DNA of 64,000 bases from an uncultured Bacteroidales bacterium. GTDB taxonomy: Bacteria; Bacteroidota; Bacteroidia; Bacteroidales; FEN-979. Positions 7,095-55,330 of this stretch are shown piece by piece; position 1 is the first letter of the stretch, and the number at the start of each line of letters is the position of its first letter. The position numbers and the translations under genes are program-made. The stretch spans positions 450 through 64,449 of the forward strand of contig CAIYES010000104.1 of assembly GCA_903925275.1 (NCBI GenBank), given 5' to 3'. The notes beneath the pieces are model-generated. The model saw nothing but the letters and a program-made list of their open reading frames with translations. It searched no databases and was not told the origin of the DNA.

Positions 7095-8405
7095 ATGATA
7101 AAAAAAACGCTTGAGAATTTAAAGATCGGGACATTAAACAAGATGCAGCTTGCCGCCATCGCGGCGATAAAAAAATCACCCGATATCCTGCTTCTTTCTC
7201 CTACAGGTTCCGGAAAGACGCTCGCTTTTCTGTTGCCCGTTCTGAGTAGTTTGATTTCCGATACTCCGGGTGTTCAAACCCTGATCCTGGTTCCCTCCCG
7301 TGAACTGGCCCTGCAGATCGAACAGGTTTTCAGGCAGATGAATTCAGGATTTAGGGTGAATTGTTTTTACGGCGGGCATGCAACCAAAACGGAAAGGAAT
7401 AATTTGACCCAGCCGGCGGCAGTGGTTGTCGGGACGCCCGGCCGGATTGCCCATCACCTCAGGAATGATAATTTTGAAACCGCGGGCATTCACACCCTGG
7501 TACTTGATGAATTTGACAAGTCGCTTGAATTCGGGTTCAAAGCGGAAATGTCGTTCATTATTTCCCGACTGAAAATGTTGAAGAAGCGGATTTTGACCTC
7601 TGCAACCAACATGGACGAGATTCCTGCTTTTACAGGGATAAAAAGCCCGCTGGTACTTGATTTCCTGAGCAGCCGCTCTCCGGTAACGGCTGCCATAAAG
7701 GTAAAATCCCTGAGAGCGGAGGATGCCGACAAACTGAAAATTTTATTTGCGTTGATCTGTTTGCTGCAGAACAAGCCGGCCTTGGTTTTTTGCAATCACC
7801 GGGAGGCAGTTGAACGCATAAGCACCCTGCTGGAAGAAAAAGGACTGGAACACGGTGTATTTCATGGGGGAATGGAACAGGAAGAACGCGAGCGTGCCCT
7901 GATAAAATTCAGGAACGGCAGCCATCGGTTGCTGATAACCACCGACCTGGCCTCCCGCGGACTCGACATACCTGAAATAGAGGCTGTGATTCATTATCAG
8001 TTGCCGGTTTCGCAGGATATTTTTACACACAGGAACGGGAGAACCGCCAGGATGAATGCTGCCGGAACATCTTACTTGTTGCTATCGGTCACCGACCACC
8101 TGCCGCCGTTTATTAAGGAAGCGCCTGAGATTGAAAACTTGCCTGAAAAGAACATTCTGCCGGGAAAATCACCGTGGTGTACACTATACATTGCAGCAGG
8201 GAAAAAGGAAAAAATTAACAAGATGGATATTGTCGGCATGCTTCTGCAAAAAGGCAAACTGGCAAAAGAAGAGCTTGGCCTGGTCGAAGTATTGGATCAT
8301 GCTTCTTACGCCTCCGTAAGCAGCACCAAAATTGAAAATGTTGTTAAATTGATCAGAAACGAAAAGATCAAGAATAAAAAAGTCAGAATTGAAATCGCCA
8401 GGTGA
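7095..8405 (+). CDS. DEAD-box ATP-dependent RNA helicase with DbpA-type C-terminal RNA-binding domain
   Basis: Motif I SPTGSGKT, Ia PSRELA, II VLDEFD (DEFD variant), III SAT, VI HRNGRTAR. The C-terminal CTLYIAAGKKEKINKMDIVG is DbpA-like. Confidence 0.9.
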   Translation: MIKKTLENLKIGTLNKMQLAAIAAIKKSPDILLLSPTGSGKTLAFLLPVLSSLISDTPGVQTLILVPSRELALQIEQVFRQMNSGFRVNCFYGGHATKTERNNLTQPAAVVVGTPGRIAHHLRNDNFETAGIHTLVLDEFDKSLEFGFKAEMSFIISRLKMLKKRILTSATNMDEIPAFTGIKSPLVLDFLSSRSPVTAAIKVKSLRAEDADKLKILFALICLLQNKPALVFCNHREAVERISTLLEEKGLEHGVFHGGMEQEERERALIKFRNGSHRLLITTDLASRGLDIPEIEAVIHYQLPVSQDIFTHRNGRTARMNAAGTSYLLLSVTDHLPPFIKEAPEIENLPEKNILPGKSPWCTLYIAAGKKEKINKMDIVGMLLQKGKLAKEELGLVEVLDHASYASVSSTKIENVVKLIRNEKIKNKKVRIEIAR

Positions 8406-8483: not shown

Positions 8484-9023
8484 ATGATCGCAAAAAACGT
8501 AGAAAAAGCAGTAAACGAACAGATCAAACGCGAAGAACATTCTTCCCGGATTTACCTGTCGATGGCCTCCTGGGCCGAACGGAACGGCTATCCCGGCGCT
8601 GCAAACTGGCTGTATGTGCAAACTGAAGAGGAACGAATCCACATGCTGAAACTGGTTCATTACCTCAACGATCGTGGCGGAACCGCGGTTATTCCGGCGC
8701 TGGATGCGCCCGAAGCAAAATTCGACTCCCTGCCCGATGTCTTTCAACAGGTGCTGACCCATGAAGAGTACATCTCGGCCTCGATCAACGACCTTTATGC
8801 CACATGCACTTCAGAGAAAGATTTTACTACGGCAAACTACCTGCAATGGTATATTACCGAGCAGATCGAAGAGGAGAGCACTGTTCGCAGTATTCTGGAT
8901 CAGATAAAACTGGCTGGCAGCGACAAGGGCGGTTTGTTCATGATGGATAAGGAATTTGCGGCCATGGCAACTGCCAAACGCGCGGCATTGGCGCTGAGTG
9001 GTGGCGCTAACGCAGTAACTTAA
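8484..9023 (+). CDS. ftn: Ferritin (non-haem, Ftn type)
   Basis: LNEQIKREEHSSRIYLSMASWAE, EEERIHMLKL and QWYITEQIEEE are ferroxidase-centre helices. Start set at ATG 8484. Confidence 0.85.
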   Translation: MIAKNVEKAVNEQIKREEHSSRIYLSMASWAERNGYPGAANWLYVQTEEERIHMLKLVHYLNDRGGTAVIPALDAPEAKFDSLPDVFQQVLTHEEYISASINDLYATCTSEKDFTTANYLQWYITEQIEEESTVRSILDQIKLAGSDKGGLFMMDKEFAAMATAKRAALALSGGANAVT

Positions 9024-9561
9024 CCAGTTTGTTATACCAGGTTCGTCCATACTTGCGGATCAATGCCTCTTCCAGGAATTGGTAAAGGTGTATTTTTTCT
9101 TTATGACCTTTCAGCAAAGCCTTCTGGCAGATCGGCCATTTGTGATAATTCAGCAAATCATTGATTGGGTTTGCTTTTATCCTGATGGGGTAGAGGTGGC
9201 ATGAAATAGGTTTTGCAAATGGAATTTTCTTTTCCTGGAAGGCCTTTTCGATGGCGCATCTCGCTATTCCTGCCTCAAAATAGACATAGGCACACTCCTT
9301 TCCGTGTATCAGTGGAGTGACAAATTTTCCCTCTGCATCATAATCGAACACCCCAAGCATCTCCACCTCCTCTACACCTTCGGGCACCATGAAGGGTTTG
9401 ATCTCATCCACGTAATCTTCAAGCAGGGATATCTCCTCTTCGTCGAGTGGCGCCCCGGCATCACCCTCCACGCAACAGGCCCCTTTGCAACTGGGCATGT
9501 CACAGCAGAAGAAAGTTGACTTGATTTCGTCGGAGAGAAGGGTGCTGTCTAGGTAAATCAT
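9007..9561 (-). CDS. DUF3109 family Cys-rich protein
   Basis: CCDMPSCKGACCVEGDAGAPLDEEEI matches my recollection of the DUF3109 N-terminal motif. Its 3' end overlaps the ferritin 3' end by 17 nt (convergent). Confidence 0.7.
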   Translation of the reverse strand: MIYLDSTLLSDEIKSTFFCCDMPSCKGACCVEGDAGAPLDEEEISLLEDYVDEIKPFMVPEGVEEVEMLGVFDYDAEGKFVTPLIHGKECAYVYFEAGIARCAIEKAFQEKKIPFAKPISCHLYPIRIKANPINDLLNYHKWPICQKALLKGHKEKIHLYQFLEEALIRKYGRTWYNKLVKLLR

Positions 9562-9577
9562 GGCGGTTTAATTAAAT

Positions 9578-9640
9578 AATGCAAACAATGCAGGCAATGC
9601 AAGCAATGCAGAAAATGCAAGCAATGCAGAAAATGCAGAA
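9578..9640 (+). repeat. 9-bp tandem array A, 7 units AATGCA[AG][AG][AC]
   Basis: Units read in register: AATGCAAAC, AATGCAGGC, AATGCAAGC, AATGCAGAA, AATGCAAGC, AATGCAGAA, AATGCAGAA. Confidence 0.95.
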
Positions 9641-9701
9641 AAAATTTTTTTTAACAAGGGTTTGACTTTTTGATTTTTTGCGGATTAAGCGAAAAGTGAA
9701 A

Positions 9702-10061
9702 ATGAAAGATAACGCGATCAAAGATAGAAGTTTTGAACTGGCCGTGGAAGTGGTTTTTGTATATCAGTACCTTATACGAGAAAAACATGAGTATATTCTT
9801 TCAAAACAGGTGTTGAGATCGGGTACTTCGGTAGGAGCGAATATAGAAGAAGGAGTTGTGGCACAGTCGAAAAAGGAGTTTTGTAACCGGTTGTCAATTG
9901 CCTATAAAGAGTCCCGTGAAACCGGATTTTGGCTGAAGTTGCTATTATCAACAGGCTACCTTACAAACGAAAAAGCCTCTGCTGCAATTGAAAAATGTGA
10001 AGAAGTCACCAGAATATTATATTCCATTCTGAAAACATCCTCTCAACCAAAGAACGAATAA
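9702..10061 (+). CDS. Four-helix-bundle protein (23S rRNA intervening-sequence protein / Avd-like family)
   Basis: SFELAVEV, LRSGTSVGANIEEG and AYKESRETGFWLKLL are hallmark motifs of the TIGR02436/PF05635-type family. ATG 9702 is preferred over TTG 9678. Confidence 0.85.
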   Translation: MKDNAIKDRSFELAVEVVFVYQYLIREKHEYILSKQVLRSGTSVGANIEEGVVAQSKKEFCNRLSIAYKESRETGFWLKLLLSTGYLTNEKASAAIEKCEEVTRILYSILKTSSQPKNE

Positions 10062-10070
10062 TCACCCATT

Positions 10071-10151
10071 ATCTGCATTATCTGCATTGTCTGCATTGCC
10101 TGCATTGCCTGCATTGCTTGCATTGCTTGCATTGCTTGCATTGCTTGCATT
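10071..10151 (+). repeat. 9-bp tandem array B, 9 units NNYTGCATT (reverse complement of array A units)
   Basis: ATCTGCATT x2, GTCTGCATT, GCCTGCATT x2, GCTTGCATT x4. Starts 9 nt after the four-helix-bundle stop. Confidence 0.95.
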
Positions 10152-10167
10152 CATCCACTTGAAACCG

Positions 10168-10902
10168 TTAGTAAACTTTCACCTTCTGTTCCCCGTTCTT
10201 TTTAAAGGTTACGGTCTTAACGATTTTATTGTCCCTGTATTCGTCCTGTTTGGTGATCTCTTTTCTGCCGTTGTAAAAAAATGAAATTCTGTATTCACTT
10301 CCATGCAGGTAACTGTATTTTCTTCTGACGGTTTTATCATCGTTGTAGATTAAAAGATCCCCGTTGAATTTAGCTGAAATCAGCACTGTTGCGATCTCAA
10401 CAACAGCCAGGAACGGATCCATCCGGTATGTTGTAGTGCCCTGGTAAACAGCACCGTTATTCACCACATGTTGTGAAGTTAAAACTGTTTTTTCGTCATC
10501 AAACATGTTGTTTTCAAAGCTGTTTAAATGAAGTACCGTTTCCTCCGGAATGGGTTCTTTGGCACTTACTTCGGCCAGTTTCATTTTATTCCTGTACAGG
10601 GTCCACTTCAAGATACCTGTATCGGAATATTCTGTCAAACGACGCGGACTCCCATCCGGGTTATTGAATCTCCAAGTCCCAACCGGCCTTCCGGTACTGT
10701 CATACCAACTTTCAGCATAGATGGTTCCATTTGGAGAAAGGTCCACCCATTTGCCGGTTTTAACACCATTACTATAGTTTCCTGCACTTCTGAATTCTTT
10801 ATAGAACATTGTAGTATCCTGGTATAAAACAGCCTGAGAAAAAAGATTTTTTTCAGGAACAAACAGAACTGAAATTAAAAAAACCAGAAAAACATTTTTC
10901 AT
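10168..10902 (-). CDS. Secreted MORN-variant repeat protein (YwqK-like)
   Basis: Signal peptide MKNVFLVFLISVLFV. GKWVDLSPNGTIYAESWYDSTGRPVGTWRFNNPDG is MORN/YwqK-like. Start set at ATG 10902, because the listed MQTMQT extension is a translation of array C. Confidence 0.65.
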   Translation of the reverse strand: MKNVFLVFLISVLFVPEKNLFSQAVLYQDTTMFYKEFRSAGNYSNGVKTGKWVDLSPNGTIYAESWYDSTGRPVGTWRFNNPDGSPRRLTEYSDTGILKWTLYRNKMKLAEVSAKEPIPEETVLHLNSFENNMFDDEKTVLTSQHVVNNGAVYQGTTTYRMDPFLAVVEIATVLISAKFNGDLLIYNDDKTVRRKYSYLHGSEYRISFFYNGRKEITKQDEYRDNKIVKTVTFKKNGEQKVKVY

Positions 10903-10945
10903 AAAAAACCTCCTACATCTCTTGTATTTCCTGCATTCAATAATT

Positions 10946-11035
10946 TTCTGCATTTTCTGCATTGTCTGCATTGTTTGCATTGTCTGCATTGTCTGCATTG
11001 TCTGCATTGTCTGCATTGTCTGCATTGTCTGCATT
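10946..11035 (+). repeat. 9-bp tandem array C, 10 units (TTCTGCATT x2, GTCTGCATT, GTTTGCATT, GTCTGCATT x6)
   Basis: Read in register. Ends 2 nt from the stop codon of the 11038-12105 gene and lies upstream of the MORN gene start. Confidence 0.95.
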
Positions 11036-11037
11036 GG

Positions 11038-12105
11038 TTAATTCCCGGGTAATTGCGATATCATTTTCCGTGAAGGTTTATAGCGCCGCCAGAATTTATA
11101 TCGTGTAATGGAAGTAAAGTAAAAAAGTTGCCTGACGCCGGGAATCCGCAGCAAATAATGATAGATGCGGTAAGATACGACCATCACCACAAAAGTCAGT
11201 CCCCACCGGATAATTGTCAACACTACCTCCACCCAGCCATTGCCCGCCGGGATGGTGATGAACCTGTCGACAAATTGCCAGAACCACATCAGAAGCCAGA
11301 TGTTAAGCAGGCACATGATGCCGATGATGTACCCATGGGAAGTTTCAATGGCTCTTTTCGGGCAGTCGTTCATGCATCGCATGCAGCTTTCACATCGGTA
11401 TGACCAGAAAGGGCGGTTGTCAACAGTCAGAATAGCCTTTACCGGGCAGTTGTTGATGCAGAGGTCGCATTTGTCGCAGGCATTTGTCGCATAAAACGAT
11501 TTAGCCAGGATGAACCGCCCTACGAAAAAATAGCCGATGCTCACCGGCGAAACAAGTATATCCTGAATAATATCGCGGAACGCCGTGTAAACTTTTTTCC
11601 CACTGAGGATTTTTCCTGCAAAAGCAATGGTGATGCTTTTACAATGACTGTAAATTGATTCAACCACTTTTTCCTTCACCCCTGGATGGAAGGATATCCA
11701 GTTCGACGGCAGGTCGATGGAACGCAGTCCCACAATGCGGTATCCTTTCAGCAGGAGTATCAGCGATGAAAGCCAAAGGGCAAGCCCGCTCAATCCGGGA
11801 ACGAACCATTTTGATAGTTTAAGCCCGGCGCGGGTATTCATCAGGAAGACCCGGTTCCCCTTCGACCGCGGGAAACGGAAGATGAAGTACATCATGGCCG
11901 GTGGGTAGTTAAACCCGTGGGTGGGAGAGATAAAACCAACCAGCGAATTTGTCGGAGGTGGCTGGATATTTTTCCGGTCGATTTTCGCGATATCGATTGT
12001 TTCGGCCGTAATGTCGCGTTCCAGCGCAGTTTCGGCAAACCAGCGGGCCACGTTGCGGGCATTGCCGGTGCCGGAAAAGAAATAGATCGTGAGCTGTGAA
12101 GGCAT
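11038..12105 (-). CDS. EFR1-family flavodoxin-like / 2x[4Fe-4S] ferredoxin with C-terminal membrane helices
   Basis: Flavodoxin-like IYFFSGTGNARNVARWFAE. Two CxxCxxCxxxCP motifs (CDKCDLCINNCP, CESCMRCMNDCP). About three hydrophobic helices at the C-terminus. Confidence 0.75.
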   Translation of the reverse strand: MPSQLTIYFFSGTGNARNVARWFAETALERDITAETIDIAKIDRKNIQPPPTNSLVGFISPTHGFNYPPAMMYFIFRFPRSKGNRVFLMNTRAGLKLSKWFVPGLSGLALWLSSLILLLKGYRIVGLRSIDLPSNWISFHPGVKEKVVESIYSHCKSITIAFAGKILSGKKVYTAFRDIIQDILVSPVSIGYFFVGRFILAKSFYATNACDKCDLCINNCPVKAILTVDNRPFWSYRCESCMRCMNDCPKRAIETSHGYIIGIMCLLNIWLLMWFWQFVDRFITIPAGNGWVEVVLTIIRWGLTFVVMVVSYRIYHYLLRIPGVRQLFYFTSITRYKFWRRYKPSRKMISQLPGN

Positions 12106-12486
12106 AATGGAAGATTTTAATGGTTCCCATTTCTTTTTCAGGGAATAAAGGTAGAAAAAAGTTTTTCAATACATCGCATCCCCTGTCCACTTCGCTGCAA
12201 GGAAAAGTGGAATTCATACTCTATGAATGAGGGTTAGATTGTGGTGATTGATGCTTGATCAAAAAAAGGCAATCTGATCATCTCTGAAAGGATCAGAAAG
12301 TTCAAAAGAAGAATCAGAATTATGAATGAACAGCCATTTTTAATTGAAGCACATTCCATGACGTTTAGTAATTGAGCTAATTAACGAGAATTCAGCCAGT
12401 ATGATCTATTCAGAATTACCTTCTGCATTTTAACAATGCCAAATAATCACTTTGCGAGCCCATTTTGTCCCAGCATTCACAGCATT

Positions 12487-12639
12487 GCTTACATTGTCTG
12501 CATTGCCTGCATTTTCTGCATTTTCTGCATTGCCTACATTGCCTACATTGCCTACATTGCCTGCATTGCCTGCATTGCCTGCATTGCTTGCATTGCCTGC
12601 ATTGCTTGCATTGCCTGCATTGCTTGCATTGCCTGCATT
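12487..12639 (+). repeat. 9-bp tandem array D, 17 units G[CT][CT]T[GA]CATT / TTCTGCATT
   Basis: Read in register. Variant units occur in runs (GCCTACATT x3, GCCTGCATT x3, then alternating GCTTGCATT/GCCTGCATT). Lies ~160 nt upstream of nuoA. Confidence 0.95.
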
Positions 12640-12766
12640 GACAAATATCAACTCCACCTATGAGATATTACAGCACCCATATTGTAAGTGGCATTTAATC
12701 AAACAAATAACGATGAGATATATATGTTTTATGCTATATCCGGTTAGGTTATCTCAGATTAATTTT

Positions 12767-12774
12767 TAACTTTG
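12767..12774 (+). promoter_or_regulatory. Candidate -7 promoter box TAACTTTG for the nuo operon
   Basis: Exact TAnnTTTG match 27 nt upstream of the nuoA ATG. Confidence 0.4.
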
Positions 12775-12800
12775 CCGCCACGTCTGTTAAAAGATTCACT

Positions 12801-13151
12801 ATGAGTGCTGAAAGTCTTATACTTTTCTTTATCGTTGGAGCCTTTCTGGTGGGGTTCGCCATTGTGTTTTCCATCCTTGTCGCACCCACTTCGACCAATC
12901 CTTCAAAAGCCGAACCTTACGAATGCGGGATTCCTACCGAGGGGCTTACCTGGCTGCAATTCAACGTGGGGTATTATTTATTCGCCATCATCTTTCTGGT
13001 ATTCGATGTTGAAAGTGTATTTATTTTTCCATGGGCCGTGGTGATGAAAGAACTGGGAATGACTGCCTTTATTGAAATCGTCATTTTCTTTTTCGTTTTG
13101 GGACTTGGCCTGTTATATGCCTGGAAGAAAGGAGCTTTGAAATGGGAATAA
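12801..13151 (+). CDS. nuoA: NADH-quinone oxidoreductase subunit A
   Basis: 116 aa, 3 TM helices, EPYECGIP motif, first gene of the nuo cluster. Confidence 0.93.
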
Positions 13152-13693
13152 AAAACATGAAAGAGTCGGATTTCCGCGACAACGAAACCCTCGACCTGTT
13201 TAAGAAATCCGGTGGAAATATTTTTTTGACCACGGTTGATGCCATGATTGACTGGGGCCGTTCGAACTCCATCTGGCCGCTTACTTTTGCAACCAGTTGT
13301 TGCGGGATCGAAATGATGGCTGCCGGCGCTGCGCGTCACGATTTTGCCCGCTTCGGGATCGAAGTCTACCGTGCCTCTCCCCGGCAGGCCGACGTGATTG
13401 TGGTGGCCGGAACGATTGTAAACAAGATGGCGCCTGTACTCAAGCGGTTGTACGACCAGATGTCGGATCCCAAATATGTGATCGCCATGGGCGCCTGTGC
13501 TGTTTCAGGTGGCCCGTTTTTTTATAACACCTATCATGTGATCCGCGGCGTTGACCATGTGATCCCCGTCGATGTATATGTACCAGGCTGTCCGCCACGC
13601 CCCGAAGCCCTGCTTTACGGTGTGATGCAGCTCCAGCGTAAGATCAGGCTGGAAACAATGGCAAATCCAAGAAAAACCCAAGAATTAAAATAG
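13142..13693 (+). CDS. nuoB: NADH-quinone oxidoreductase subunit B
   Basis: N2-cluster cysteines in [18 protein letters not shown] and GCPPRPEAL. Overlaps nuoA by 10 nt. Confidence 0.96.
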
Positions 13694-13706
13694 ATAATTT
13701 CCCAAG

Positions 13707-14165
13707 ATGGATAATGCAGCATTGAAGGAGCGCATTCTGGGTCTGGTTCCCGACGCAGAATACCAGGAAAACAAGCAATTTCTTACCTTTATCATCCCGC
13801 CGGCAAAAATGTACGATCTGGCTGTCAAACTCAAAAATGAGGCTGACCTTGCATTCGATTTTCTCTTCTGCCTTACAGGCGTCGACATGGTGAAATTTCT
13901 TGAAGTGGTGTACCACCTCGAATCAACCACCCATCATCATCAGATTGAACTGAAAGTGCGTACGGAAGATCGTGAAAACGGCGCCGTCGACACGGTTTGT
14001 GACATCTGGAGAACCGCGGAATTTCTCGAACGGGAAGTTTTCGATCTGCTGGGCATCCGGTTCAGCAACCATCCCGACCTGCGGAGAATCTTTCTGGAAG
14101 ATGGCTGGGTAGGCCACCCGTTGCGCAAAGATTATGTTGATGAAGTTAACATCGTAGAATTTTAA
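13707..14165 (+). CDS. nuoC: NADH-quinone oxidoreductase subunit C
   Basis: EREVFDLLGIRFSNHPDLRRI is the canonical 30-kDa subunit motif. Confidence 0.93.
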   Translation: MDNAALKERILGLVPDAEYQENKQFLTFIIPPAKMYDLAVKLKNEADLAFDFLFCLTGVDMVKFLEVVYHLESTTHHHQIELKVRTEDRENGAVDTVCDIWRTAEFLEREVFDLLGIRFSNHPDLRRIFLEDGWVGHPLRKDYVDEVNIVEF

Positions 14166-14168
14166 GGT

Positions 14169-15296
14169 ATGAAAGAAATCATCAACCTGCCAGTCAAAAA
14201 CGTAGAGGAGGAGGAATACCATATTAATATGGGGCCTCAACACCCTTCCACCCACGGGGTGCTCCGGTTGGTCGTCTCTCTCCAGGGGGAGATCGTAAAA
14301 AGCCTGAAGCCCCATTGCGGCTATATCCACAGGGGTATCGAGAAGATGTGTGAAAAGGATACCTATCCCCAGATTATCCATCTTACCGACCGGATGGATT
14401 ACCTTTCGGCCCATATCAACAACCACGCTGTGTGTATGCTGGTTGAAAAAGCGCTCGAAGTAGAGGTTCCTGAGCGGGTGACATACATCCGCACCATCAT
14501 CGACGAGCTAAACCGCATCGCCTCCCATCAGCTTTGGTGGTGCAGTTTCGGAATGGACATGGGCGGACTGACCTGTTTTTTTTACGGTCTGCGCGACCGC
14601 GAAAAAATTCTCGACATTTTCGAAGAATCCTTCGGATCAAGGTTGCTTCACAGTTATTACACTCCGGGGGGACTGATGATGGACATTCACCCGGATTTCC
14701 AGAAAAACGTCAAGGCTTTCATCAAATATTTCCGCAAGAAAATCAAAGATTATGATGATCTGCTCACAGGCAATATCATCATGCAACTACGCACCAAAGG
14801 TGTTGGAATCCTTACAAAGGAAGACGCCATCAGTTATGGTGTTACGGGCCCTTCAGGCCGTGCCTCCGGTTTTGCCTGTGATGTGCGGAAACATCATCCG
14901 TATGGCGTTTACGATAAAACGGAGTTCAAAGAAATACTGGGAACCAAAGGCGACACCTTTGAACGCTACATGATGAGAATGCATGAAATGCTTGAATCCA
15001 TGAAGATCATCGAGCAACTCATCGACAACATCCCTGCAGGCGATTATAAGGCAAAGATGAAGGCGGTGATCAAACTGCCGGCAGGAGAGTATTTTCAACG
15101 GGTGGAGGCAGCCCGTGGCGAGTTAGGCGTTTATGTAGTGAGCGACGGCAATAAAAGCCCGTACCGCATGAAATTCCGCTCACCGAATTTTTCCAACCTG
15201 AGTGTGCTTGATCATATCAGCCGCGGTTGTAAAATTGCCGACCTGGTAGCCATCGGGGGTTCATTGGACTATGTTATTCCGGATATTGACAGATAA
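14169..15296 (+). CDS. nuoD: NADH-quinone oxidoreductase subunit D
   Basis: NMGPQHPSTHGVLRL; C-terminal IPDIDR. Confidence 0.96.
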   Translation: MKEIINLPVKNVEEEEYHINMGPQHPSTHGVLRLVVSLQGEIVKSLKPHCGYIHRGIEKMCEKDTYPQIIHLTDRMDYLSAHINNHAVCMLVEKALEVEVPERVTYIRTIIDELNRIASHQLWWCSFGMDMGGLTCFFYGLRDREKILDIFEESFGSRLLHSYYTPGGLMMDIHPDFQKNVKAFIKYFRKKIKDYDDLLTGNIIMQLRTKGVGILTKEDAISYGVTGPSGRASGFACDVRKHHPYGVYDKTEFKEILGTKGDTFERYMMRMHEMLESMKIIEQLIDNIPAGDYKAKMKAVIKLPAGEYFQRVEAARGELGVYVVSDGNKSPYRMKFRSPNFSNLSVLDHISRGCKIADLVAIGGSLDYVIPDIDR

Positions 15297-15308
15297 TAAA
15301 ATTTATCT

Positions 15309-16397
15309 ATGAACTTTAGTATTTACGACTTTACGTCATTCAACCAATGGATCGACAAATTCCTGTTCGACAACCTGCCGGCATTTTGGGCCATTGTCGT
15401 GGAAATGACCATTATCGGCCTGGTTGTCCTGCTTTTTTACGCCCTGGTCGGCCTCTTCCTTGTGTATGCCGAACGCAAGGTTTGCGCGTTTATGCAGAAC
15501 CGTGTCGGACCGAACCGTGTAGGGCCGTACGGGTTTTTTCAGACAATTGCCGACCTGTTCAAACTGCTCATGAAGGAACTGGTGTATATCAAGAATGCAG
15601 ACAGACTGCTGTTCAACATAGCACCATTTATCGTGATCATTGCATCATTCATGGCTATCGCGGCCATCCCGTTTGCAAAAGGGCTCCATGCCATTGATTT
15701 TGATATCGGTATCCTTTATGTGATTGCTGTATCCTCGCTGGGTGTTGTCGGAATCCTGCTTGCCGGCTGGTCGAGCAACAACAAATATTCACTCATCGGC
15801 GCCATGCGCTCCGGGGCACAGATCGTGAGTTATGAACTTTCGGTGGGGTTATCGCTCATTACCATCATCATCCTGGCCGGAACCATGCAGTTTTCTGCTA
15901 TCGTGGAAGGACAGGCCAATGGCTGGTTTATTTTCAAAGGACATATCCCGGCCTTTATCGCCTTCATTGTATTTCTCATCTCAAGTACTGCCGAAACCAA
16001 TCGTGGTCCCTTCGACCTGGCTGAAGCCGAATCGGAGTTGACAGCAGGGTTTCATACCGAATATTCAGGGATTAAGTTTGCTTTTTTCTTCCTGGCCGAA
16101 TACATGAATATGTTCATCGTGGCCTCCATTGCAGCTACCGTGTTTTGGGGCGGATGGATGCCATTCCACGTTGGCGGATGGGCAGGTTTCAACCACATCA
16201 TGGATTTCATCCCGCCGCTCGTGTGGTATTTCGGAAAAACCTTTTTTATCATCTGGATCATGATGTGGATTAAATGGACCTTCCCGAGGTTGAGGATCGA
16301 CCAGTTGTTGACCCTGGAATGGAAATACCTGTTGCCCATCAACCTGGTCAATATTCTTATCATGGCATTTATCGTATTAATGGGTTGGCATTTTTAG
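15309..16397 (+). CDS. nuoH: NADH-quinone oxidoreductase subunit H
   Basis: [22 protein letters not shown] and [21 protein letters not shown]. Confidence 0.96.
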
Positions 16398-16403
16398 AAA
16401 ACT

Positions 16404-16886
16404 ATGAACAGCTTTTTCAAATACTTTACAGATATCTTCTACGCGGTTAAATCGCTCCTTACGGGGATGAAGGTGACCGGAAGATATTTCTTCAGCCCCT
16501 GGGAGATCGTAACCCAGCAGTACCCGGAAAACCGGAAGACCCTGAAAATGTACGACCGGTTCAAGGGGGAAGTGATCATGCCGCACAATGAACACAATGA
16601 ACATCGCTGTACCGGGTGCGGGATTTGTGAAACAGCTTGTCCGAATGGCTCTATCGAGATCCTCCAGGCAAAGATCGACATGCCCGACGGTAAAAAGAAA
16701 CGCATCATCGACAAACATATTTATCACCTTGATATGTGCACTTTTTGCGGGTTGTGTATCAAATCATGTCCCTCTGAGGCCATCGTCTGGGGACAGGAGT
16801 TTGAGCACGCCGTTTTCGATCGTTCAAAGCTGACCAAAATATTAAATAAACCCGGATCATCCATCATAAAAGATATTGTAGAATGA
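16404..16886 (+). CDS. nuoI: NADH-quinone oxidoreductase subunit I
   Basis: Two ferredoxin motifs, CTGCGICETACP and CTFCGLCIKSCP. Confidence 0.93.
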   Translation: MNSFFKYFTDIFYAVKSLLTGMKVTGRYFFSPWEIVTQQYPENRKTLKMYDRFKGEVIMPHNEHNEHRCTGCGICETACPNGSIEILQAKIDMPDGKKKRIIDKHIYHLDMCTFCGLCIKSCPSEAIVWGQEFEHAVFDRSKLTKILNKPGSSIIKDIVE

Positions 16887-17395
16887 CACCAAATCAATTG
16901 ATGTTTGCGATCTTTTCGGCAGTCATTATCATTTTTTCAATACTGACTGTGACCAGCCGGCGTATCCTTCGGGCGGCCACCTTCCTGTTGTTTGTGCTGG
17001 TAGCAACCGGCGGCATGTATTTCCTGCTGAGGTTTAACTTCCTGGCAGCCATACAGCTTACGCTATATGCCGGTGGCATTGTGGTACTGATCATCTTTTC
17101 AATCCTGCTTACCAGTCATATCGGGGAAAAACTTGAAAAACCGGGGTTGAAAAAAATAATCCCGGCCTTTGTGGCAGCAGGTGTTGGGGCAGTAGTTACC
17201 ATTTCAACCATTCTGCAGCATAATTTTCCGGTAGAAGTTATCTCAGGCAGTGAACGTACCGACATCCGTTTGATAGCGAAAAGCCTCATCAGTGTTGAGA
17301 AATTCGGATACGCCCTGCCTTTTGAAGTGATCAGCATCCTGTTGCTGGCCGCCATGGTGGGGGCCATCATCCTGGCAAAGAAACGTAAAGATTAA
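16883..17395 (+). CDS. nuoJ: NADH-quinone oxidoreductase subunit J
   Basis: 170-aa polytopic membrane protein in the conserved position. 4-nt overlap with nuoI. Confidence 0.88.
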   Translation: MTPNQLMFAIFSAVIIIFSILTVTSRRILRAATFLLFVLVATGGMYFLLRFNFLAAIQLTLYAGGIVVLIIFSILLTSHIGEKLEKPGLKKIIPAFVAAGVGAVVTISTILQHNFPVEVISGSERTDIRLIAKSLISVEKFGYALPFEVISILLLAAMVGAIILAKKRKD

Positions 17396-17416
17396 TTTAT
17401 TTAACACCAACACGAT

Positions 17417-17734
17417 ATGTTTGAAGGCGTTCCATTAACCTGGTTTTTAATCACCGGCACCATCATGTTCTTTGTCGGTATTTATGGATTTCTGGTCCGG
17501 AAAAACCTGATCACCATCCTCATGTCTACCGAATTGATCCTGAATTCGGTCAACATCAACTTTGTTGCTTTTAACAAAATCCTTTACCCGGATCATCTGG
17601 AGGGGATGTTCTTCAGCATTTTCATCATTGCCGTTGCAGCGGCGGAGGCATCGGTGGCCATTGCCATCATTATCAACATTTACCGCCGCCTCGTGAATAT
17701 CAATGTTGAGAAGATGGATGAAATGAAATATTAG
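17417..17734 (+). CDS. nuoK: NADH-quinone oxidoreductase subunit K
   Basis: 105 aa, 3 TM helices, STELILNSVNINFVAF. Confidence 0.92.
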   Translation: MFEGVPLTWFLITGTIMFFVGIYGFLVRKNLITILMSTELILNSVNINFVAFNKILYPDHLEGMFFSIFIIAVAAAEASVAIAIIINIYRRLVNINVEKMDEMKY

Positions 17735-17911
17735 GCAATAGGCAATAGGCAGTAGGCAATAGTTTGAGAACTAAATGTAATACCATAAGAGAAATGAAAT
17801 GTTAGGCAATAGGCATCAGGCAATAGGCAATAGTTTTTGAACCAAATGTAATACCATAAGAGAAATGAATAACAGTATTTTAAAACCCAATGCCTACTGC
17901 CTACTGCCTCA
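17734..17911. repeat. Composite repeat in the nuoK-nuoL spacer
   Basis: A ~77-bp tandem duplication carries GGCA[AG]TA heptamer arrays, plus an inverted heptamer array. GGCAATA-type x4 at 17734-17762 and x4 at 17805-17833. The block GAAATGAAAT[AG]TTAGGCAATAGG...AAATGTAATACCATAAGAGAAATGAA occurs twice. Inverted TGCCTAC x2-3 at 17891-17911. Confidence 0.9.
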
Positions 17912-17938
17912 TAGTTAAAAATCGTAAATAGTTATCAC

Positions 17939-19864
17939 ATGATCGATTTCAGTTACACCGTTTGGATTCTGTTGATACCCCTGCTCATGTTTTTAGTGGT
18001 CGGTCTCTTCGGGAACCGTTTTAAACCATTGGTCTCCGGAATTGCCGGAACCTCAGGCCTGTTTGTGATGTGGATACTGTCATTAGTCACAGCCTACAAG
18101 TATTTCTTTGTGCTTGAGAAGGCTGCCGACGGAACCTTTCAGAAATTCCTGGCCTTCAACATGCGCTGGCTGAACCTGACCGATACGCTTCACATCGACA
18201 TGGGAGTGCTCCTTGATCCCATCTCGATCATGATGCTGATCGTGATCACAACCGTTTCGTTTATGGTACACGTATATTCCATCGGGTACATGAAGGACGA
18301 AAAAGGGTTCATGCGTTTTTTTGCCATGTTATCGCTCTTCAGTTTTTCGATGCTGGGGCTGGTTGTTGCGACCAACATTTTCCAGATGTATATCTTCTGG
18401 GAACTTGTGGGGGTATCCTCTTATCTGCTTATCGGATTTTATTATACGAAGGATTCGGCTGTATCAGCCTCCAAGAAAGCTTTTATTGTGACCCGTTTTG
18501 CCGACCTGGGATTCCTTATCGGGATACTGATGCTTTCATTTTCCACAGGAACTTTCGACTTTCTGACCCTTACAGGTGCTAACAGCCCTGCGTTTTCTTC
18601 AGGAACCGGGATCATGTTCCTCGGATTGTCAACCATGACATGGTCAATGATCTTTATCTTCATGGGAGGCGCCGGAAAATCGGCTATGTTCCCGCTGCAT
18701 ATATGGTTACCCGATGCCATGGAGGGTCCAACCCCTGTTTCGGCACTTATCCATGCGGCCACCATGGTTGTTGCAGGTGTTTATCTGGTGGCACGTCTTT
18801 TTCCTATTTACGTTTTTGCTGCCCCCGTGGCCCTCGATGTGGTGATGTATGTGGGGGCATTCAGTTCTATTTTTGCTGCCGTGATCGCCTGTACCCAATT
18901 CGACATCAAGCGGGTACTTGCATATTCGACCATGTCGCAGATTGGCATGATGATGTTCGCCCTTGGTGTTTCTGGATACAGCGGACATGAAGGATTAGGT
19001 TATATGGCCTCTATGTTCCATCTTTTTACGCATGCATTTTTTAAATCTCTGTTATTTCTTGGTGCCGGAGCCATTATTCACGCCGTTCACAGCAATGTGA
19101 TGAACGAAATGGGCGGGTTGCGGAAATATCTTCCAATTACACATGCCACCTTCCTGATAGCCTGTTTAGCCATTGCCGGAGTTCCGCCACTGGCAGGGTT
19201 TTTCAGCAAGGACGAGATCCTGGCTGCCGGCCATGAAAAAAGCCTGATGTTATACTGGGTTGAAATGATCGTATCTGGGTTGACCGCATTTTATATGTTC
19301 CGCCTCTATTTCTCAGTTTTCTGGGGAAAAGAAACCCATTACCACCATACGCCGCATGAAGCTTCAAAAACGATGACCATTCCCCTGATGATTCTTGCCG
19401 TTGGCGCACTTCTGGCCGGATTGATCCCATTCTCCATGTTCGTTTCGTCCGACCGTATGCCTTTCCAATCGCACCTTGAGATCGGTATTGCCATTCCGGC
19501 TGTGCTGGTCGGTTTGTCCGGGATTTTGATCGCCATGATTTTCTACAGGAAAGAGACTGACCTGCCCGACAGGATATACAATGCCCTGGGCGGTTTCTCA
19601 AAGGCAGCCTTTCACAAATTTTACATTGATGAAGTCTATCTGTTCATAACCAAAAAAATTATTTTTAACTATGTGTCCCGTCCCATTGCGTGGTTCGACC
19701 GTCACATCGTAGATGGCGCCATGAACGGGGTGGCTTATGTAACAAACGAAGCCTCCGACCGCATTAAAAGATTTCAATCGGGCCAGCTCCAGCAATATGC
19801 ACTTGTTTTTGTATCCGGCGTAGTGTTGCTTACCTTGTTATTCACCTATTTTTGGACAAACTAA
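17939..19864 (+). CDS. nuoL: NADH-quinone oxidoreductase subunit L
   Basis: WLPDAMEGPTPVSALIHAATMV. 641-aa antiporter-like subunit with a C-terminal extension. Confidence 0.96.
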   Translation: MIDFSYTVWILLIPLLMFLVVGLFGNRFKPLVSGIAGTSGLFVMWILSLVTAYKYFFVLEKAADGTFQKFLAFNMRWLNLTDTLHIDMGVLLDPISIMMLIVITTVSFMVHVYSIGYMKDEKGFMRFFAMLSLFSFSMLGLVVATNIFQMYIFWELVGVSSYLLIGFYYTKDSAVSASKKAFIVTRFADLGFLIGILMLSFSTGTFDFLTLTGANSPAFSSGTGIMFLGLSTMTWSMIFIFMGGAGKSAMFPLHIWLPDAMEGPTPVSALIHAATMVVAGVYLVARLFPIYVFAAPVALDVVMYVGAFSSIFAAVIACTQFDIKRVLAYSTMSQIGMMMFALGVSGYSGHEGLGYMASMFHLFTHAFFKSLLFLGAGAIIHAVHSNVMNEMGGLRKYLPITHATFLIACLAIAGVPPLAGFFSKDEILAAGHEKSLMLYWVEMIVSGLTAFYMFRLYFSVFWGKETHYHHTPHEASKTMTIPLMILAVGALLAGLIPFSMFVSSDRMPFQSHLEIGIAIPAVLVGLSGILIAMIFYRKETDLPDRIYNALGGFSKAAFHKFYIDEVYLFITKKIIFNYVSRPIAWFDRHIVDGAMNGVAYVTNEASDRIKRFQSGQLQQYALVFVSGVVLLTLLFTYFWTN

Positions 19865-19876
19865 TACCATAGAAGA

Positions 19877-21391
19877 ATGAGTATTCTGACGCTATTTATC
19901 ATTATACCGGTTCTCACTGTAATTGGTATTTTATTATGCAAAACCCATATGCAGGTGAAGTGGGTCGCCGTAGTGGGAATGAGCCTGCAACTCATAAGCG
20001 CCATCGCGCTGATTCTGCTTTACCTGGCCGAACGGAGGGCGGGTAACATGGCCGAAATTCTCTTCATGCAGGATAATGTGTGGTATCAAACCCTCAACAT
20101 TCATTTTCTCATAGGCGTTGATGGTGTTTCGGTCGCCATGATCGGACTGACATCCCTGGTGGTTTTCGCCGGGATCTTTGCAAGCTGGGATATTGTTGAC
20201 CTGCCGCGCGAATTTTTTACATCACTGATTCTGCTGGCAACCGGAGTGTTCGGTTTCTTTATTTGCCTCGATCTTTTCACCATGTTCCTCTTCTACGAAT
20301 TGGCAGTAATACCGATGTACCTGCTGATTGGTATCTGGGGCAGTGGTCCGCGGCATTATTCAGCCATGAAACTTACCCTGATGCTCATGGGTGGCTCAGC
20401 ACTTATACTGTTGGGAATTATCGGTATCTATTTCAACTCTGCTCCCAACGGTGGTCCGCTGACCTTCGACCTGATCAAGATCTCTAAAGAACACCTTCCC
20501 ATCAATGTTCAGCTTTTCTTATTTCCGTTCCTCTTTGTTGGGTTTGGAGTATTGGGAGCTATGTTTCCTTTCCACACATGGTCTCCCGATGGTCATGCCT
20601 CGGCGCCTACCGCCGTTTCGATGCTTCACGCAGGGGTACTCATGAAACTGGGCGGTTACGGTTGCTACCGTGTTGCAGTTTTTCTCCTTCCTGAAGCAGC
20701 ACACCAATTAGGCTGGATTTTCCTGATCCTTGCCACAATCGGTGTTATTTACGGTGCGCTCGGGGCTGTATGGCAGAAAGACCTGAAATATATCAATGCC
20801 TATTCGTCGGTGAGCCATTGTGCTCTTGTGTTGTTTGCCATTCTCATGTTCAACCAGACCGCCATGAACGGTGCCATCATGCAGATGATCTCTCATGGCA
20901 TCATGACAGCCCTTTTCTTTGCCCTTATCGGGATGATTTACGGGCGAACCCATACCCGATTCATCAATGAAATGGGTGGTTTGATGAAGGTAATGCCCTT
21001 CCTGGCTGTCGCCTATGTCATCGCGGGTCTTGCATCCCTCGGACTTCCCGGATTCAGCGGGTTTGTGGCCGAAATGACCATTTTCGTAGGAGCTTTCCAG
21101 AATGCGGATGTTTTCCACCGCGTGGCTACCATCATTGCTGCCTCTTCAATCGTGGTTACCGCTGTGTATGTTCTCCGGGTAGTTGGTGTTTTATTGCTTG
21201 GAAAAATCAAAAATGAACATTTTGAGACCATTACCGATGCCAAATGGTTTGACAAAATAAGCGTGGTTACCTTAATATTTGGGATCACGCTGATCGGAGT
21301 GGCCCCACTCTGGCTATCGGATATGATCACACAGGGATTGGGACCCATCATGCATAAACTACTTGCCGCTGCGCCGGGAATAATAAATTAA
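19877..21391 (+). CDS. nuoM: NADH-quinone oxidoreductase subunit M
   Basis: HTWSPDGHASAPTAVSMLHAGVLMKLGGYG. Confidence 0.95.
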   Translation: MSILTLFIIIPVLTVIGILLCKTHMQVKWVAVVGMSLQLISAIALILLYLAERRAGNMAEILFMQDNVWYQTLNIHFLIGVDGVSVAMIGLTSLVVFAGIFASWDIVDLPREFFTSLILLATGVFGFFICLDLFTMFLFYELAVIPMYLLIGIWGSGPRHYSAMKLTLMLMGGSALILLGIIGIYFNSAPNGGPLTFDLIKISKEHLPINVQLFLFPFLFVGFGVLGAMFPFHTWSPDGHASAPTAVSMLHAGVLMKLGGYGCYRVAVFLLPEAAHQLGWIFLILATIGVIYGALGAVWQKDLKYINAYSSVSHCALVLFAILMFNQTAMNGAIMQMISHGIMTALFFALIGMIYGRTHTRFINEMGGLMKVMPFLAVAYVIAGLASLGLPGFSGFVAEMTIFVGAFQNADVFHRVATIIAASSIVVTAVYVLRVVGVLLLGKIKNEHFETITDAKWFDKISVVTLIFGITLIGVAPLWLSDMITQGLGPIMHKLLAAAPGIIN

Positions 21392-21468
21392 GCCCATCCG
21401 CTCACGCTCCACTACCACAGGGGGGAGTGTTGGGGAGGGGGTAATACAAACGTAATAAAAGACACACG

Positions 21469-22878: not shown

Positions 22879-23020
22879 TGTTGCATTTCCGTAGAGCCGC
22901 ATCGCAATGCGGCGTACGGGTTGTATTGATGTTGCATTTCCGTAGAGCCGCATCGCAATGCGGCTGTACGGTCCGGCGCATTGCATTTCCGTAGAGCCGC
23001 ATCGCGATGCGGCTCTACGG
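22865..23020 (+). repeat. Three tandem copies (~51 bp) of a hairpin-bearing element that starts inside the last codons of nuoN
   Basis: ACGGGTTGTATTGATGTTGCATTTCCGTAGAGCCGCATCGCAATGCGGC(T)GT x2, then a third partial copy. The third copy forms a perfect 14-bp stem: CCGTAGAGCCGCAT-CGCG-ATGCGGCTCTACGG (22989-23020). Confidence 0.9.
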
Positions 23021-23063
23021 CCAAGGTCGGATATTTCATCACATTGGAATGATAAATAGTATT

Positions 23064-23393
23064 ATGGCAAATTTAAAAGGTAAACACAATATCGCCGCAA
23101 TTGATGATGTGCGTTGCACGGTGATTGAAACAGGTGCAACAACAGCTCGTTCCGGATTTTTAAAAGAGCTGCTTGCTTTTAACAGGTATGATGTGAAAAC
23201 CGAAAATGAAAAAGCAAAGGATGGCAGCATGCTTGAAACTTTTATTATCGGAGTAACTGATACTCTTTTCAATCCGATGATAGCCGTTTACCAGAAAAAA
23301 CTCTTCAGGAAAGACGGAAAAACGGTGACCCCGAATTACTGGAATCAAAAGCCGGAGCAGGATGATATTCCGTACTGGCAGGTTCAACGGTAA
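23064..23393 (+). CDS. Hypothetical protein
   Basis: ORF with no family recognised. Start is uncertain (ATG 23049 or 23064). The listed start at 23007 lies inside the hairpin repeat. Confidence 0.5.
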   Translation: MANLKGKHNIAAIDDVRCTVIETGATTARSGFLKELLAFNRYDVKTENEKAKDGSMLETFIIGVTDTLFNPMIAVYQKKLFRKDGKTVTPNYWNQKPEQDDIPYWQVQR

Positions 23394-23398
23394 CCGCC

Positions 23399-23596
23399 AT
23401 GCAAAAACTTGCCAAATATTTCGCCTGGTTTGTTATTTCCCTTTATTTCATTCTCGGGATATTTGTGCTTGTAAGCCCCCGGTTTCAATATCTTTCTAGA
23501 GAGGTTAAAATCATTTTTGCCGTCTTCCTTTTCCTTTATGGCGGATTCCGTATTGCACGCCTTTGGTCAAAAAACCGGGAACGCAACGAAGAATAA
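23399..23596 (+). CDS. Small membrane protein (2 predicted TM helices)
   Basis: 65 aa with two hydrophobic stretches (FAWFVISLYFILGIFVLV, IIFAVFLFLYGGF). 5 nt after the previous stop. Confidence 0.5.
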   Translation: MQKLAKYFAWFVISLYFILGIFVLVSPRFQYLSREVKIIFAVFLFLYGGFRIARLWSKNRERNEE

Positions 23597-23753
23597 TTTC
23601 AATTGCCGGGGTGTTTTTCTTTAAAGAGAAGCGAAATATCGAAATAGCGAACGATTAACAGTGCTGGTAATAAAGGGATTCCGAGAAATTCGAACGGCAA
23701 AAGGTTTTTGTGAATTATCCGGCAAATTTTTGAAAGTGCAATAATAAATTTCA

Positions 23754-23761
23754 TAAATTTG
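23754..23761 (+). promoter_or_regulatory. Candidate -7 promoter box TAAATTTG
   Basis: Exact TAnnTTTG match. It overlaps the listed GTG start at 23761, which argues for the downstream ATG 23803. Confidence 0.4.
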
Positions 23762-23802
23762 TGTTCTATCATATGAATCAATTGATTTTAAGCGTTAAAG
23801 CG

Positions 23803-55254: not shown

Positions 55255-55258
55255 AAAC

Positions 55259-55321: not shown

Positions 55322-55330
55322 TTAATTCCT

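Follow-up and report, generated by a model that had tools for sequence, protein, structure and literature searches.

In the 64-kb window analysed here, which is the whole stretch of 64,000 nt from an uncultured Bacteroidales bacterium (contig CAIYES010000104.1), a small gene for a four-helix-bundle (4HB) protein is located between a DUF3109 gene and an EFR1-family ferredoxin gene and is bracketed by inverted tandem arrays of one 9-mer family with the core TGCATT, or AATGCA in the complement. The protein belongs to the 23S rRNA intervening-sequence (IVS) protein/S23p family and has PDB 2RLD as its closest solved structure (3e-33), with 2GSC as a further match. Arrays were called with Tandem Repeats Finder and by direct reading of the window (Table 1). 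In agreement with the initial annotation, four arrays of the family (A to D) were found within 3 kb and a fifth one (E) 43 kb away, all five are intergenic, array C ends 2 nt from the EFR1 stop codon and array B starts 9 nt past the 4HB stop codon. These 9 nt are a degenerate unit themselves, and the outer end of array A lies 16 nt from the DUF3109 start codon. The pattern TGCATTN3TGCATT occurs 36 times in the window in comparison to 0.08 expected from dinucleotide shuffles, and all 36 copies are inside the five arrays. Lone TGCATT outside the arrays is not enriched (49 copies, 84th percentile of hexamers), and seeding of the arrays by a common regulatory motif is therefore unsupported.

Array A is the reverse complement of array B. 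In RNA of positions 9570-10160 the two arrays are predicted to form a stem of ~ 65 bp (−181.6 kcal/mol compared with −139 kcal/mol for shuffles, z = −6.5). Among the 55 genes of the window, the 4HB gene is the sole outlier in a flank inverted-repeat score, reaching 47.5 while the next gene has 14 and the median is 8.5. Instead of four equivalent separators of unrelated genes, as originally described, A and B/C are the inverted arms of one 4HB-centred element, in which the downstream arm is divided by an orphan gene. The product of the cassette matches PF05635 and TIGR02436 and its open reading frame (ORF) is enclosed by the predicted stem, as in an IVS; in contrast to an IVS, the cassette lies between EFR1 and DUF3109 and not in a 23S or 16S rRNA helix.

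The gene labels given initially stand for DUF3109, the four-helix bundle, EFR1 and nuoA, the latter supported by PF00507, but not for the "MORN" gene. The product of this orphan gene has no Pfam or NCBIfam match and just two homologues in 5.8 billion proteins. Immediate neighbours of the cassette are EFR1, DUF3109, ferritin and nuoA. A search for Bacteroidetes promoters (TTTG / TAnnTTTG) yielded only the nuoA promoter, with a strict −7 box, and none for 4HB, DUF3109 or EFR1. The spacer between array A and the 4HB start codon, which is visibly similar in four related loci (L143, L111, L112, L191), presumably holds the promoter and leader of the cassette.

The arrays are present at the same positions in independent ENA, JGI and GTDB assemblies, and an assembly artefact, which had been considered initially, is therefore rejected. 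Unit counts have to be read as lower bounds, since long arrays can collapse in short-read assemblies; in Logan contigs, breaks or jumps occur inside arrays A and B, as expected of multi-copy repeats.

Table 1 Features of the 4HB cassette and other repeats in the window.
Feature	Coordinates	Strand	Composition or family	Position and remarks
DUF3109 gene	9007-9561	−	PF11307	Host gene, one side of the insertion slot
Array A	9578-9639	+	6.9 units AATGCA-RRM	Upstream, purine-rich arm of the 4HB cassette
Spacer	9640-9701	+	~ 60 nt	Between array A and the 4HB ATG
4HB gene	9702-10061	+	PF05635 (4.6e-26); TIGR02436 (5.6e-29)	23S rRNA intervening-sequence protein/S23p family
Array B	10067-10151 (10062-10151 with degenerate unit)	+	9.4 units NNN-TGCATT	Inner part of the downstream, pyrimidine-rich arm
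Orphan gene	10168-10905	−	"MORN-like", lipoprotein-type	Inside the downstream arm, dividing it into B and C
Array C	10943-11036		10.4 units	Outer part of the downstream arm
EFR1-family ferredoxin gene	11038-12105	−	NF038196	Host gene, other side of the slot
Array D	12482-12640		17.7 units; degenerate units at left end from 12465	Solo array of the same 9-mer family
ORF-less inverted-array hairpin	17732-17909		(TAGGCAA)x4 twice, then inverted (TGCCTAC)x2.7	nuoK-nuoL spacer; z = −2.2
Array E	55250-55288 (from 55241 with degenerate first unit)		4.3 units, (AATGCAAAC)x4	Solo array
ORF-less inverted-array hairpin	58393-58570		(ATTTCAG)x6, ~ 95 nt, CTGAAAT-type units	−59 compared with −35.2 kcal/mol for shuffles; z = −6.8

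Recurrence of the layout and variation of the slot

Repeat-armed layouts were found around related genes in at least five phyla. A tblastn search with the 4HB protein of the window against PLSDB gave 32 plasmid records, mainly from Nostocales, Planktothrix, Bernardetia and Chondrinema, and 16 plasmid loci were chosen before their flanks were inspected (Nostocales, Planktothrix, Euhalothece, Gloeocapsa, Pseudanabaena, Bernardetia, Chondrinema, Treponema, Monoglobus and Chlorohelix). At least 15 of these 16 loci have inverted tandem arrays on the two sides of the 4HB gene, built from unrelated 7-mers; the Pseudanabaena locus is ambiguous. The upstream motifs are GATTAGT, ACCAGTG, AATTCAA, GTAAAAA, CAGTGAA, AGGTCGG, GATTTAC, GAAAGYG, AATTAGG, AAGTAAA, GTAATTC, CAGGTGA and ATTTTAG, and each time the downstream array of a bracketed plasmid cassette is the reverse complement of the upstream motif. 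Three more bracketed loci are a second gene of L323 (GGGTGTG/ACACCCT), the Bacteroidales metagenome-assembled genome (MAG) L054 and the gammaproteobacterial MAG L103. In the latter, (GGAAATGCA)x5 extends from the ndk stop codon, two decayed inverted units follow the 4HB stop codon, and the AATGCA core recurs.

In a control with 101 annotated genes, seven 4HB genes took the seven highest flank inverted-repeat scores (p = 5e-6), the lowest 4HB value being 17.5 in comparison to a maximum of 14.0 for all other genes. From 34 short-period arrays in 138 kb, 21 are located within 330 nt of the seven 4HB genes, a zone that makes up 3.3% of the sequence. Of 22 cassettes, 18 have a purine-rich upstream arm (p = 0.004), and the medians over the 22 are 65 nt between arm and ATG and 16 nt between stop codon and downstream arm. 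We consider it probable that A and B/C represent the arms of a general 4HB cassette layout.

Several cassettes split operons, namely cas2|cas1, cas6|cas4, hsdS|hsdR, drmD|MmeI, RND adaptor|permease and DUF1156|Swt1-HEPN. This agrees with earlier notes of the 4HB family inside cas loci (PMC3936711) and inside rRNA insertions. The 4HB insertions of eight plasmid loci (L315, L330, L333, L334, L329, L318, L335, L336) are in defence operons, where they are always small and always carry their own repeat arms.

Among relatives of the window, the slot between EFR1 and DUF3109 is variable: it can be empty, filled differently, or occupied by the cassette in either orientation. EFR1 directly adjoins DUF3109 in L114, L115, L117, L121 and L124, and in the array-less L114 a single TGCATT is left at the homologous place. 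In L113, L122, L123, L135 and L137 the slot contains a DUF1801-like gene whose start overlaps the EFR1 stop codon (ATGA). An AATGCA array, a 4HB gene on the opposite strand and a TGCATT array are found in L111, L112, L119, L120, L143, L150, L153 and bin-2482, and the cassette has the other orientation, with 8-mer arms (AATGCAGG/TGCATTCC), in L116 and L118. The polarity of the arms relative to the gene of the cassette is identical in both orientations. A different repeat was seen in L122, where a 15-mer array (CCCGGCGGATTGGAT)x8 at 7684-7802 lies between the DUF1801-like gene and DUF3109, starting 23 nt past the stop codon (TGA 7659-7661) and ending ~ 20 nt before the next ATG.

The orphan gene is missing in L143 and L111 (95-97% nucleotide identity to the window) and in bin-2482, in which the corresponding flanks are joined by one array only. 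In L143 this single arm lies between the EFR1 and 4HB stop codons; its left flank with the first units is identical to the start of array C (ttaacc AATGCAgac ...), and its final units with the right flank to the end of array B (... AATGCAgat aatgggtgattattcg). Because of these matching ends, the window equals L143 plus an insert consisting of the rest of C, the orphan gene and the start of B. Direct copies of the array lie on both sides of the orphan gene, an arrangement that is the signature of an exchange within or between arrays. L191 has the orphan gene in the same layout, with a protein of 89% identity. The homologues of the orphan gene were also examined for movement between arrays; only the two exist, one at the same locus and the other next to an insertion sequence (IS) element without arrays.

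The arms are hypervariable, with unit numbers that differ between relatives. At the position of array A, 7 units in the window compare with 8, 13, 18, 9, 20, 5 and 6 in relatives with EFR1 proteins 82-99% identical, and the counts for the other arm are 10, 5, 11, 6, 16 and 3. Variant units are clustered in runs, for example GCCTACATT x3 followed by GCCTGCATT x3, as described initially. Such identical runs, together with the differing counts, support a local expansion and contraction of the arrays, in line with the slipped-strand expansion that had been suggested.

The 9-mer family outside the cassette

Arrays D and E are solo arrays. Array D has a sharp end towards nuoA and is located ~ 127 nt upstream of the nuoA −7 box (TAACTTTG at 12767); its position is retained, with 5-10 units, in the Kiruna bin L096 and in L116 and L118. 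In the ENA assembly ERZ1426828, the place of array D and nuoA (~ 12105-12800 in the window) is taken by a gene for a 1197-aa SNF2/DUF3670 helicase, 215 nt away from the EFR1 start; this junction across array D is either a strain rearrangement or an assembly join. In array E, a degenerate first unit AATGAAAAC provides the TGA stop codon of the upstream gene, and the orthologous array in L046 has six units and the identical stop-codon overlap. An 8-mer array (TTTCACCA)x4.4 at 55289-55323 is contiguous with array E, so that arrays of different families adjoin within one spacer; the orthologous spacer of L046 is without the 8-mer array.

A scan with four consecutive units in one genome per species gave at least 108 loci. 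Most of the matches listed come from freshwater Bacteroidales MAGs, in which a single genome often has many loci (AM-2014_bin-2482, Kiruna_bin-02728, ELA284/494/214, LacPavin, Prolixibacteraceae and Draconibacterium bins), and two related MAGs have at least 10 TGCATT-array loci each. Matches outside Bacteroidales are mostly single, perfect, coding Asn-Ala-X repeats and were rejected as instances of the same phenomenon. EFR1 was used to recover 80 metagenomic loci, among which TGCATT arrays are confined to those with an EFR1 of at least 78% identity to that of the window; more distant clades have other 7-mers at the same post-stop position, and the related genomes are also rich in other 7- and 8-mer families. 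Going by this distribution, the TGCATT 9-mers are peculiar to a lineage of freshwater Bacteroidales. Matches to the four-unit pattern were also obtained in at least 119 IMG/VR viral contigs, many of them from giant-virus bins.

Placement was analysed for 65 non-coding arrays of related MAGs, oriented to read AATGCA. A coding-sequence boundary is no more than 26 nt away from the 5′ end in 33 of 58 arrays, compared with 7 of 54 for the other end, a positional bias of the kind that the initial annotation had asked about. Next to a neighbour on the same strand the array abuts the stop codon: 28 of 37 post-stop arrays start within 26 nt (median ~ 7), and in 19 of these 28 the distance from stop codon to first unit is 1 modulo 3, the stop codon often being the TGA of a degenerate first unit AATGAAAAC. 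Next to a neighbour on the opposite strand, the array abuts the start codon of that neighbour. The far end of each array decays gradually. The same placement rule was reported by Rehm et al. for GGGAATC/GGGGAYT heptamers in Xanthomonas and Nostoc (PMC4692102). Our 9-mers are unable to form G-quadruplexes, and the rule can therefore not depend on quadruplexes, which argues against quadruplex formation as its reason.

With 4-18 units of 9 nt and the same motif at many, mostly intergenic loci, the arrays of the window belong to the class of dispersed short tandem repeats known, and so far unexplained, as short tandemly repeated repetitive sequences (STRR) or long simple sequence repeats (LSSR). 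The statement that no function has been described for the arrays is correct, although the class itself has been described and its placement rule published (PMC4692102). They are neither CRISPR nor repetitive extragenic palindromic (REP) sequences, as had been noted: the units are contiguous, 9 nt long and have just three variable bases, in contrast to CRISPR repeats of ~ 24-48 nt with unique spacers, and the only palindrome is the 4-nt TGCA, which also separates them from REP/REPIN elements with their imperfectly palindromic units of ~ 20-40 nt and associated RAYT transposase; no search for a RAYT was made. Rfam gave no match for the arrays and no rRNA on positions 8500-24500. Purine-rich sense strands were considered as a general rule for all array families, which failed (13 vs 16 for the non-TGCATT families). 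Ribosome re-initiation on in-frame AUGs of the arrays was discarded too, as the distance between the end of the array frames and the next start codon is not consistent. Units such as GGCAATGCA and GGAATGCA, from arrays with GGC/AGC units or 8-mer units (arrays A, B and D of the window; L116 and L088), contain GCAATG and GAATGC, which we take to be BsrDI and BsmI sites and mention as a lead only; BsrDI and BsmI are nicking-type IIS enzymes.

About 25 arrays of the family are coding (AAT-GCA-NNN, Asn-Ala-X). Some lie in giant secreted proteins, within a loop of a repeated 90-aa domain, and others in the linker of a PQQ-propeller protein. In the giant secreted proteins of L016, L061, L058, L024, L034, L062 and L080, an in-frame four-unit AATGCANNN array (NAxNAxNAxNA) occupies one loop in some copies of the domain; in other copies this loop is non-repetitive (VNGxxxGxN). 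Here, a coding loop seems to have been overwritten by the repeat family.

Two predicted ORF-less inverted-array hairpins of other families are present in the window (Table 1), in line with ORF-less IVSs. In the nuoK-nuoL spacer, the TAGGCAA array provides with its first TAG the stop codon of nuoK. This spacer (17720-17909), which is part of the nuo operon, contains a 71-bp duplication with (TAGGCAA)x4 in each copy. The hairpin at 58393-58570 is located between the gene of a BNR/sortilin protein with a type IX secretion system (T9SS) tail and the next gene, and is an ORF-less counterpart of the cassette arms. Further repeat families of the window include TAGGCAA, TTTCACCA, ATTTCAG and others. 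After nuoN (22864-23020), a 51-nt unit occurs about three times, each with a GC-rich hairpin (GCCGCATCGCAATGCGGC) and TTGCATT; two weak Rfam matches to miRNA families on this repeat (22.9 kb) are below the gathering threshold and are regarded as chance. A repeat of 63-nt period (2.6 copies, 38934-39096) within the gene of a 1282-aa hybrid histidine kinase is presumably coding.

Origin of the arrays and known systems

We propose, with about even confidence in the model as a whole, that the cassette is an IVS-like selfish 4HB element whose tandem 9-mer arms pair in RNA. It is located between EFR1 and DUF3109, two genes that in relatives adjoin each other or are separated in another way. In a read-through transcript of either strand, the arms would pair into the stem of ~ 65 bp and loop out the insert, and RNase III would cut this stem by analogy with rRNA intervening sequences, so that the insertion would be tolerated inside operons. 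This RNA-stem and RNase III mechanism is a tentative part of the model, which we consider less likely than not. Due to their tandem structure, the arms would be prone to slippage and unequal exchange, which would give runs of identical variants and differing unit counts, and they would serve as substrates of homologous recombination, which would account for the orphan gene within an arm and for either orientation of the cassette. D and E are solo arrays that obey the fixed-end placement at a stop or start codon. Of three ideas put forward initially, cassette-shuffling scars or substrates come closest to this, considering the orphan gene inside an array and the varying content and orientation of the slot.

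Several points weigh against the model. The variable triplets of the two arms show no unit-by-unit covariation, and the arm-duplex energy, a measure inflated with 230-nt flanks, has no sense/antisense asymmetry (p = 0.9); therefore, selection at the RNA level is not singled out over a DNA-level origin of the inverted repeats. The ~ 25 coding arrays likewise point to a DNA-level process. Most arrays are solo: ~ 65 non-coding arrays of related MAGs have no nearby 4HB gene or detectable remnant, and a profile of 19 proteins searched against six-frame ORFs of ~ 1.4 Mb of loci found no 4HB remnants beside them, so that the cassette model leaves part of the family unaccounted for. Few homologues were sampled, with a bias to plasmids and cyanobacteria. 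Outside the lineage of the window, no pair of filled and empty sites defines the cassette ends or a target-site duplication, and copies on three Nostoc flagelliforme plasmids, considered as a guide to the ends, are parts of larger shared segments or duplications and uninformative. We infer the pairing of the arms in vivo from a predicted fold and their cleavage by RNase III from analogy; mobility of the cassette and any role of the 4HB protein are likewise inferred. Solo arrays may be footprints or trans-mobilised derivatives of 4HB cassettes. Alternatively, cassettes may settle in pre-existing array hairpins, or solo arrays and cassettes may both reflect a shared slippage-prone context.

Other explanations have to be weighed against the IVS-like model. 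The cassette could be a mobile element at the DNA level, with the arrays as terminal inverted repeats that a mobility machinery recognises, the 4HB protein as encoded factor or accessory, and solo arrays and ORF-less hairpins as derivatives or footprints spread in trans, similar to miniature inverted-repeat transposable elements (MITEs). The two orientations in the same slot with unchanged internal polarity would fit such an element, as would the interrupted operons in many taxa (cas2|cas1, cas6|cas4, hsdS|hsdR, drmD|MmeI, RND adaptor|permease), the outer array ends touching both neighbouring genes, the ORF-less inverted-array hairpins in the window and in L010, and the occurrence of one motif family at many loci. 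However, neither a target-site duplication nor clean ends came to light, the cassette has no linked recombinase, the ~ 120-aa helical bundle is without known catalytic motif, and identical copies at different sites occur only as segmental duplications; the lack of 4HB remnants by solo arrays counts against it as well. We regard a DNA-level mobile element as possible but doubtful. Ordinary dispersed simple-sequence repeats without dedicated role, which arose by slippage from chance seeds and last only at tolerated sites (beside stop or start codons and within permissive protein loops), are in our view slightly less likely still. On this explanation the arrays promote recombination incidentally, and 4HB genes land or survive in array-rich spacers, their link to arrays being secondary. 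That same lack of remnants, the lone TGCATT in L114, the coding Asn-Ala-X arrays, the many other 7- and 8-mer families of related genomes and the limitation of the TGCATT family to one clade (EFR1 at least 78%), with other motifs at the same post-stop position elsewhere, are all consistent with it, and the same placement rule has been published for seemingly unrelated heptamers (PMC4692102). It does not account for the reverse-complement downstream array in at least 15 of 16 plasmid cassettes, whose motifs are unrelated, nor does it tell why only 4HB genes are outliers among 101 neighbouring genes, why the arm polarity is conserved and why one core motif is found at dozens of loci.

The arrays could also be protein-binding sites, one per unit, with a motif that co-evolves with its protein, for which the presumably pentameric 4HB protein encoded between them is the obvious candidate. 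Avd, a protein of diversity-generating retroelements related to the 4HB protein, binds nucleic acid. Each cassette has its own motif, PDB 2RLD and 2GSC list five chains each, and the AATGCA core recurs next to a gammaproteobacterial homologue of only 33% identity. A homopentameric toroid is given for the S23p protein of X. campestris in work cited in PMC4990558. Yet the likeness of motifs does not track the likeness of proteins, as homologues of 45% identity have unrelated motifs, most arrays are far from any 4HB gene, and a spacing of 9 nt mismatches the helical repeat of DNA, which makes binding arrays an improbable explanation. Promoter spacers or contingency loci, another of the initial ideas, found little support. 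Here, the number of units would switch or tune adjacent genes via promoter spacing or leader length, which would suit the counts differing among related strains and species and the location of A and D in divergent promoter regions. But the only strict −7 box is that of nuoA, and the distance of array D from it places D outside the promoter elements; B lies between convergent genes, C and E follow stop codons, and the neighbours are housekeeping genes (nuo, ferredoxin) and not surface or variable genes. The same argument against phase variation was made for the Xanthomonas and Nostoc heptamers (PMC4692102). We consider a contingency function highly improbable.

Dispersed tandem repeat families have been a puzzle since 1990. 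We speculate, as a rather doubtful extension of the IVS-like model, that STRR, the Xanthomonas and Nostoc heptamers and the families of the window are arms, ORF-less derivatives and footprints of a single widespread, hitherto unrecognised class of IVS-like elements, including a role of the 4HB (S23p/Avd-like) protein in forming, spreading or processing the arrays. If true, this would explain the placement rule, since elements in very short spacers touch both neighbours with their outer ends, the recurrence of one motif at many loci, and the fact that array-rich taxa (Nostocales, Xanthomonas, Bernardetia) are also those with 4HB genes. In practice, the arms break short-read assemblies, and together with related arrays they mark sites of differing gene content among related strains and species.

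Among known systems, REP/REPIN elements and MITEs share with the arrays that they are short, non-coding, intergenic repeats with hairpin-forming inverted pairs and a proposed mobilisation in trans. In contrast, the units of the window are tandem, not individually palindromic and vary in copy number by slippage, and no RAYT or transposase was identified at the cassette, RAYT not having been searched for. Integron cassettes are likewise small promoter-poor genes in a variable slot with a recombination-prone sequence directly past the stop codon; they differ in that the window is without attC structure, no integrase is among the genes scanned, and the orphan gene is inserted between direct tandem arrays, as would result from homologous exchange.

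The closest relatives of the arrays are the cyanobacterial STRR and long simple sequence repeats of 5-11 nt, which are of unknown function according to the summary of Mrazek 2007 in PMC4679880, the GGGAATC/GGGGAYT heptamers of Xanthomonas and Nostoc (PMC4692102) and the TAACTGA heptamers of Beggiatoaceae, Cyanobacteria and Bacteroidetes (PMC4679880). Common to them are one motif at many loci, an intergenic bias, inverted pairs, and positions that are kept while unit numbers vary between relatives. The family of the window differs by its unit of 9 nt (8 nt in some relatives) with a 6-nt core and three variable bases, by the lack of a G-quadruplex and by its restriction to freshwater Bacteroidales MAGs. 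Furthermore, its arrays go together with the insertion, loss and inversion of genes, in contrast to those of Xanthomonas, for which loci of unusual stability were reported. The papers on STRR and heptamers (PMC4692102, PMC4679880) report no link to 4HB genes; in the literature searched, the coverage of which is incomplete so that an earlier description is possible, a link of the 4HB family with flanking tandem arrays was not found beyond one remark on Coxiella.

The S23p/PF05635 family was first defined from ORFs within 23S rRNA intervening sequences, and IVSs with such an ORF are present in Leptospira, Coxiella, Brucella and Xanthomonas (PMC4990558). The 23S IVS of Coxiella is a selfish element with an S23p ORF and a terminal inverted-repeat stem of 28 bp that is cut by RNase III, and it has two to three strain-variable tandem GACAGAT heptamers upstream of the S23p ORF (PMC4990558). 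Both this IVS and the cassette behave as dispensable insertions and have the protein family in common, terminal inverted repeats able to form a long stem around the ORF, purine-rich short tandem repeats of strain-variable number upstream of the ORF, and ORF-less versions. In contrast to the rRNA IVS with its unique 28-bp inverted repeat, the cassette is located between protein-coding genes, its arms are wholly tandem (7-20 units of 9 nt, 8 nt in some relatives), one arm contains an extra gene, and RNase III excision is proposed by analogy. Thus, two puzzles that are decades old, the 7-9-nt tandem repeats at many loci (STRR/LSSR) and the 4HB/S23p genes in IVSs, CRISPR-cas and restriction operons, are joined by this locus and the sampled homologues in one anatomy of purine-rich array, gene and inverted array. 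As a variant of the IVS that is located outside rRNA, the repeat-armed 4HB cassette may connect intervening sequences to the STRR/LSSR puzzle.

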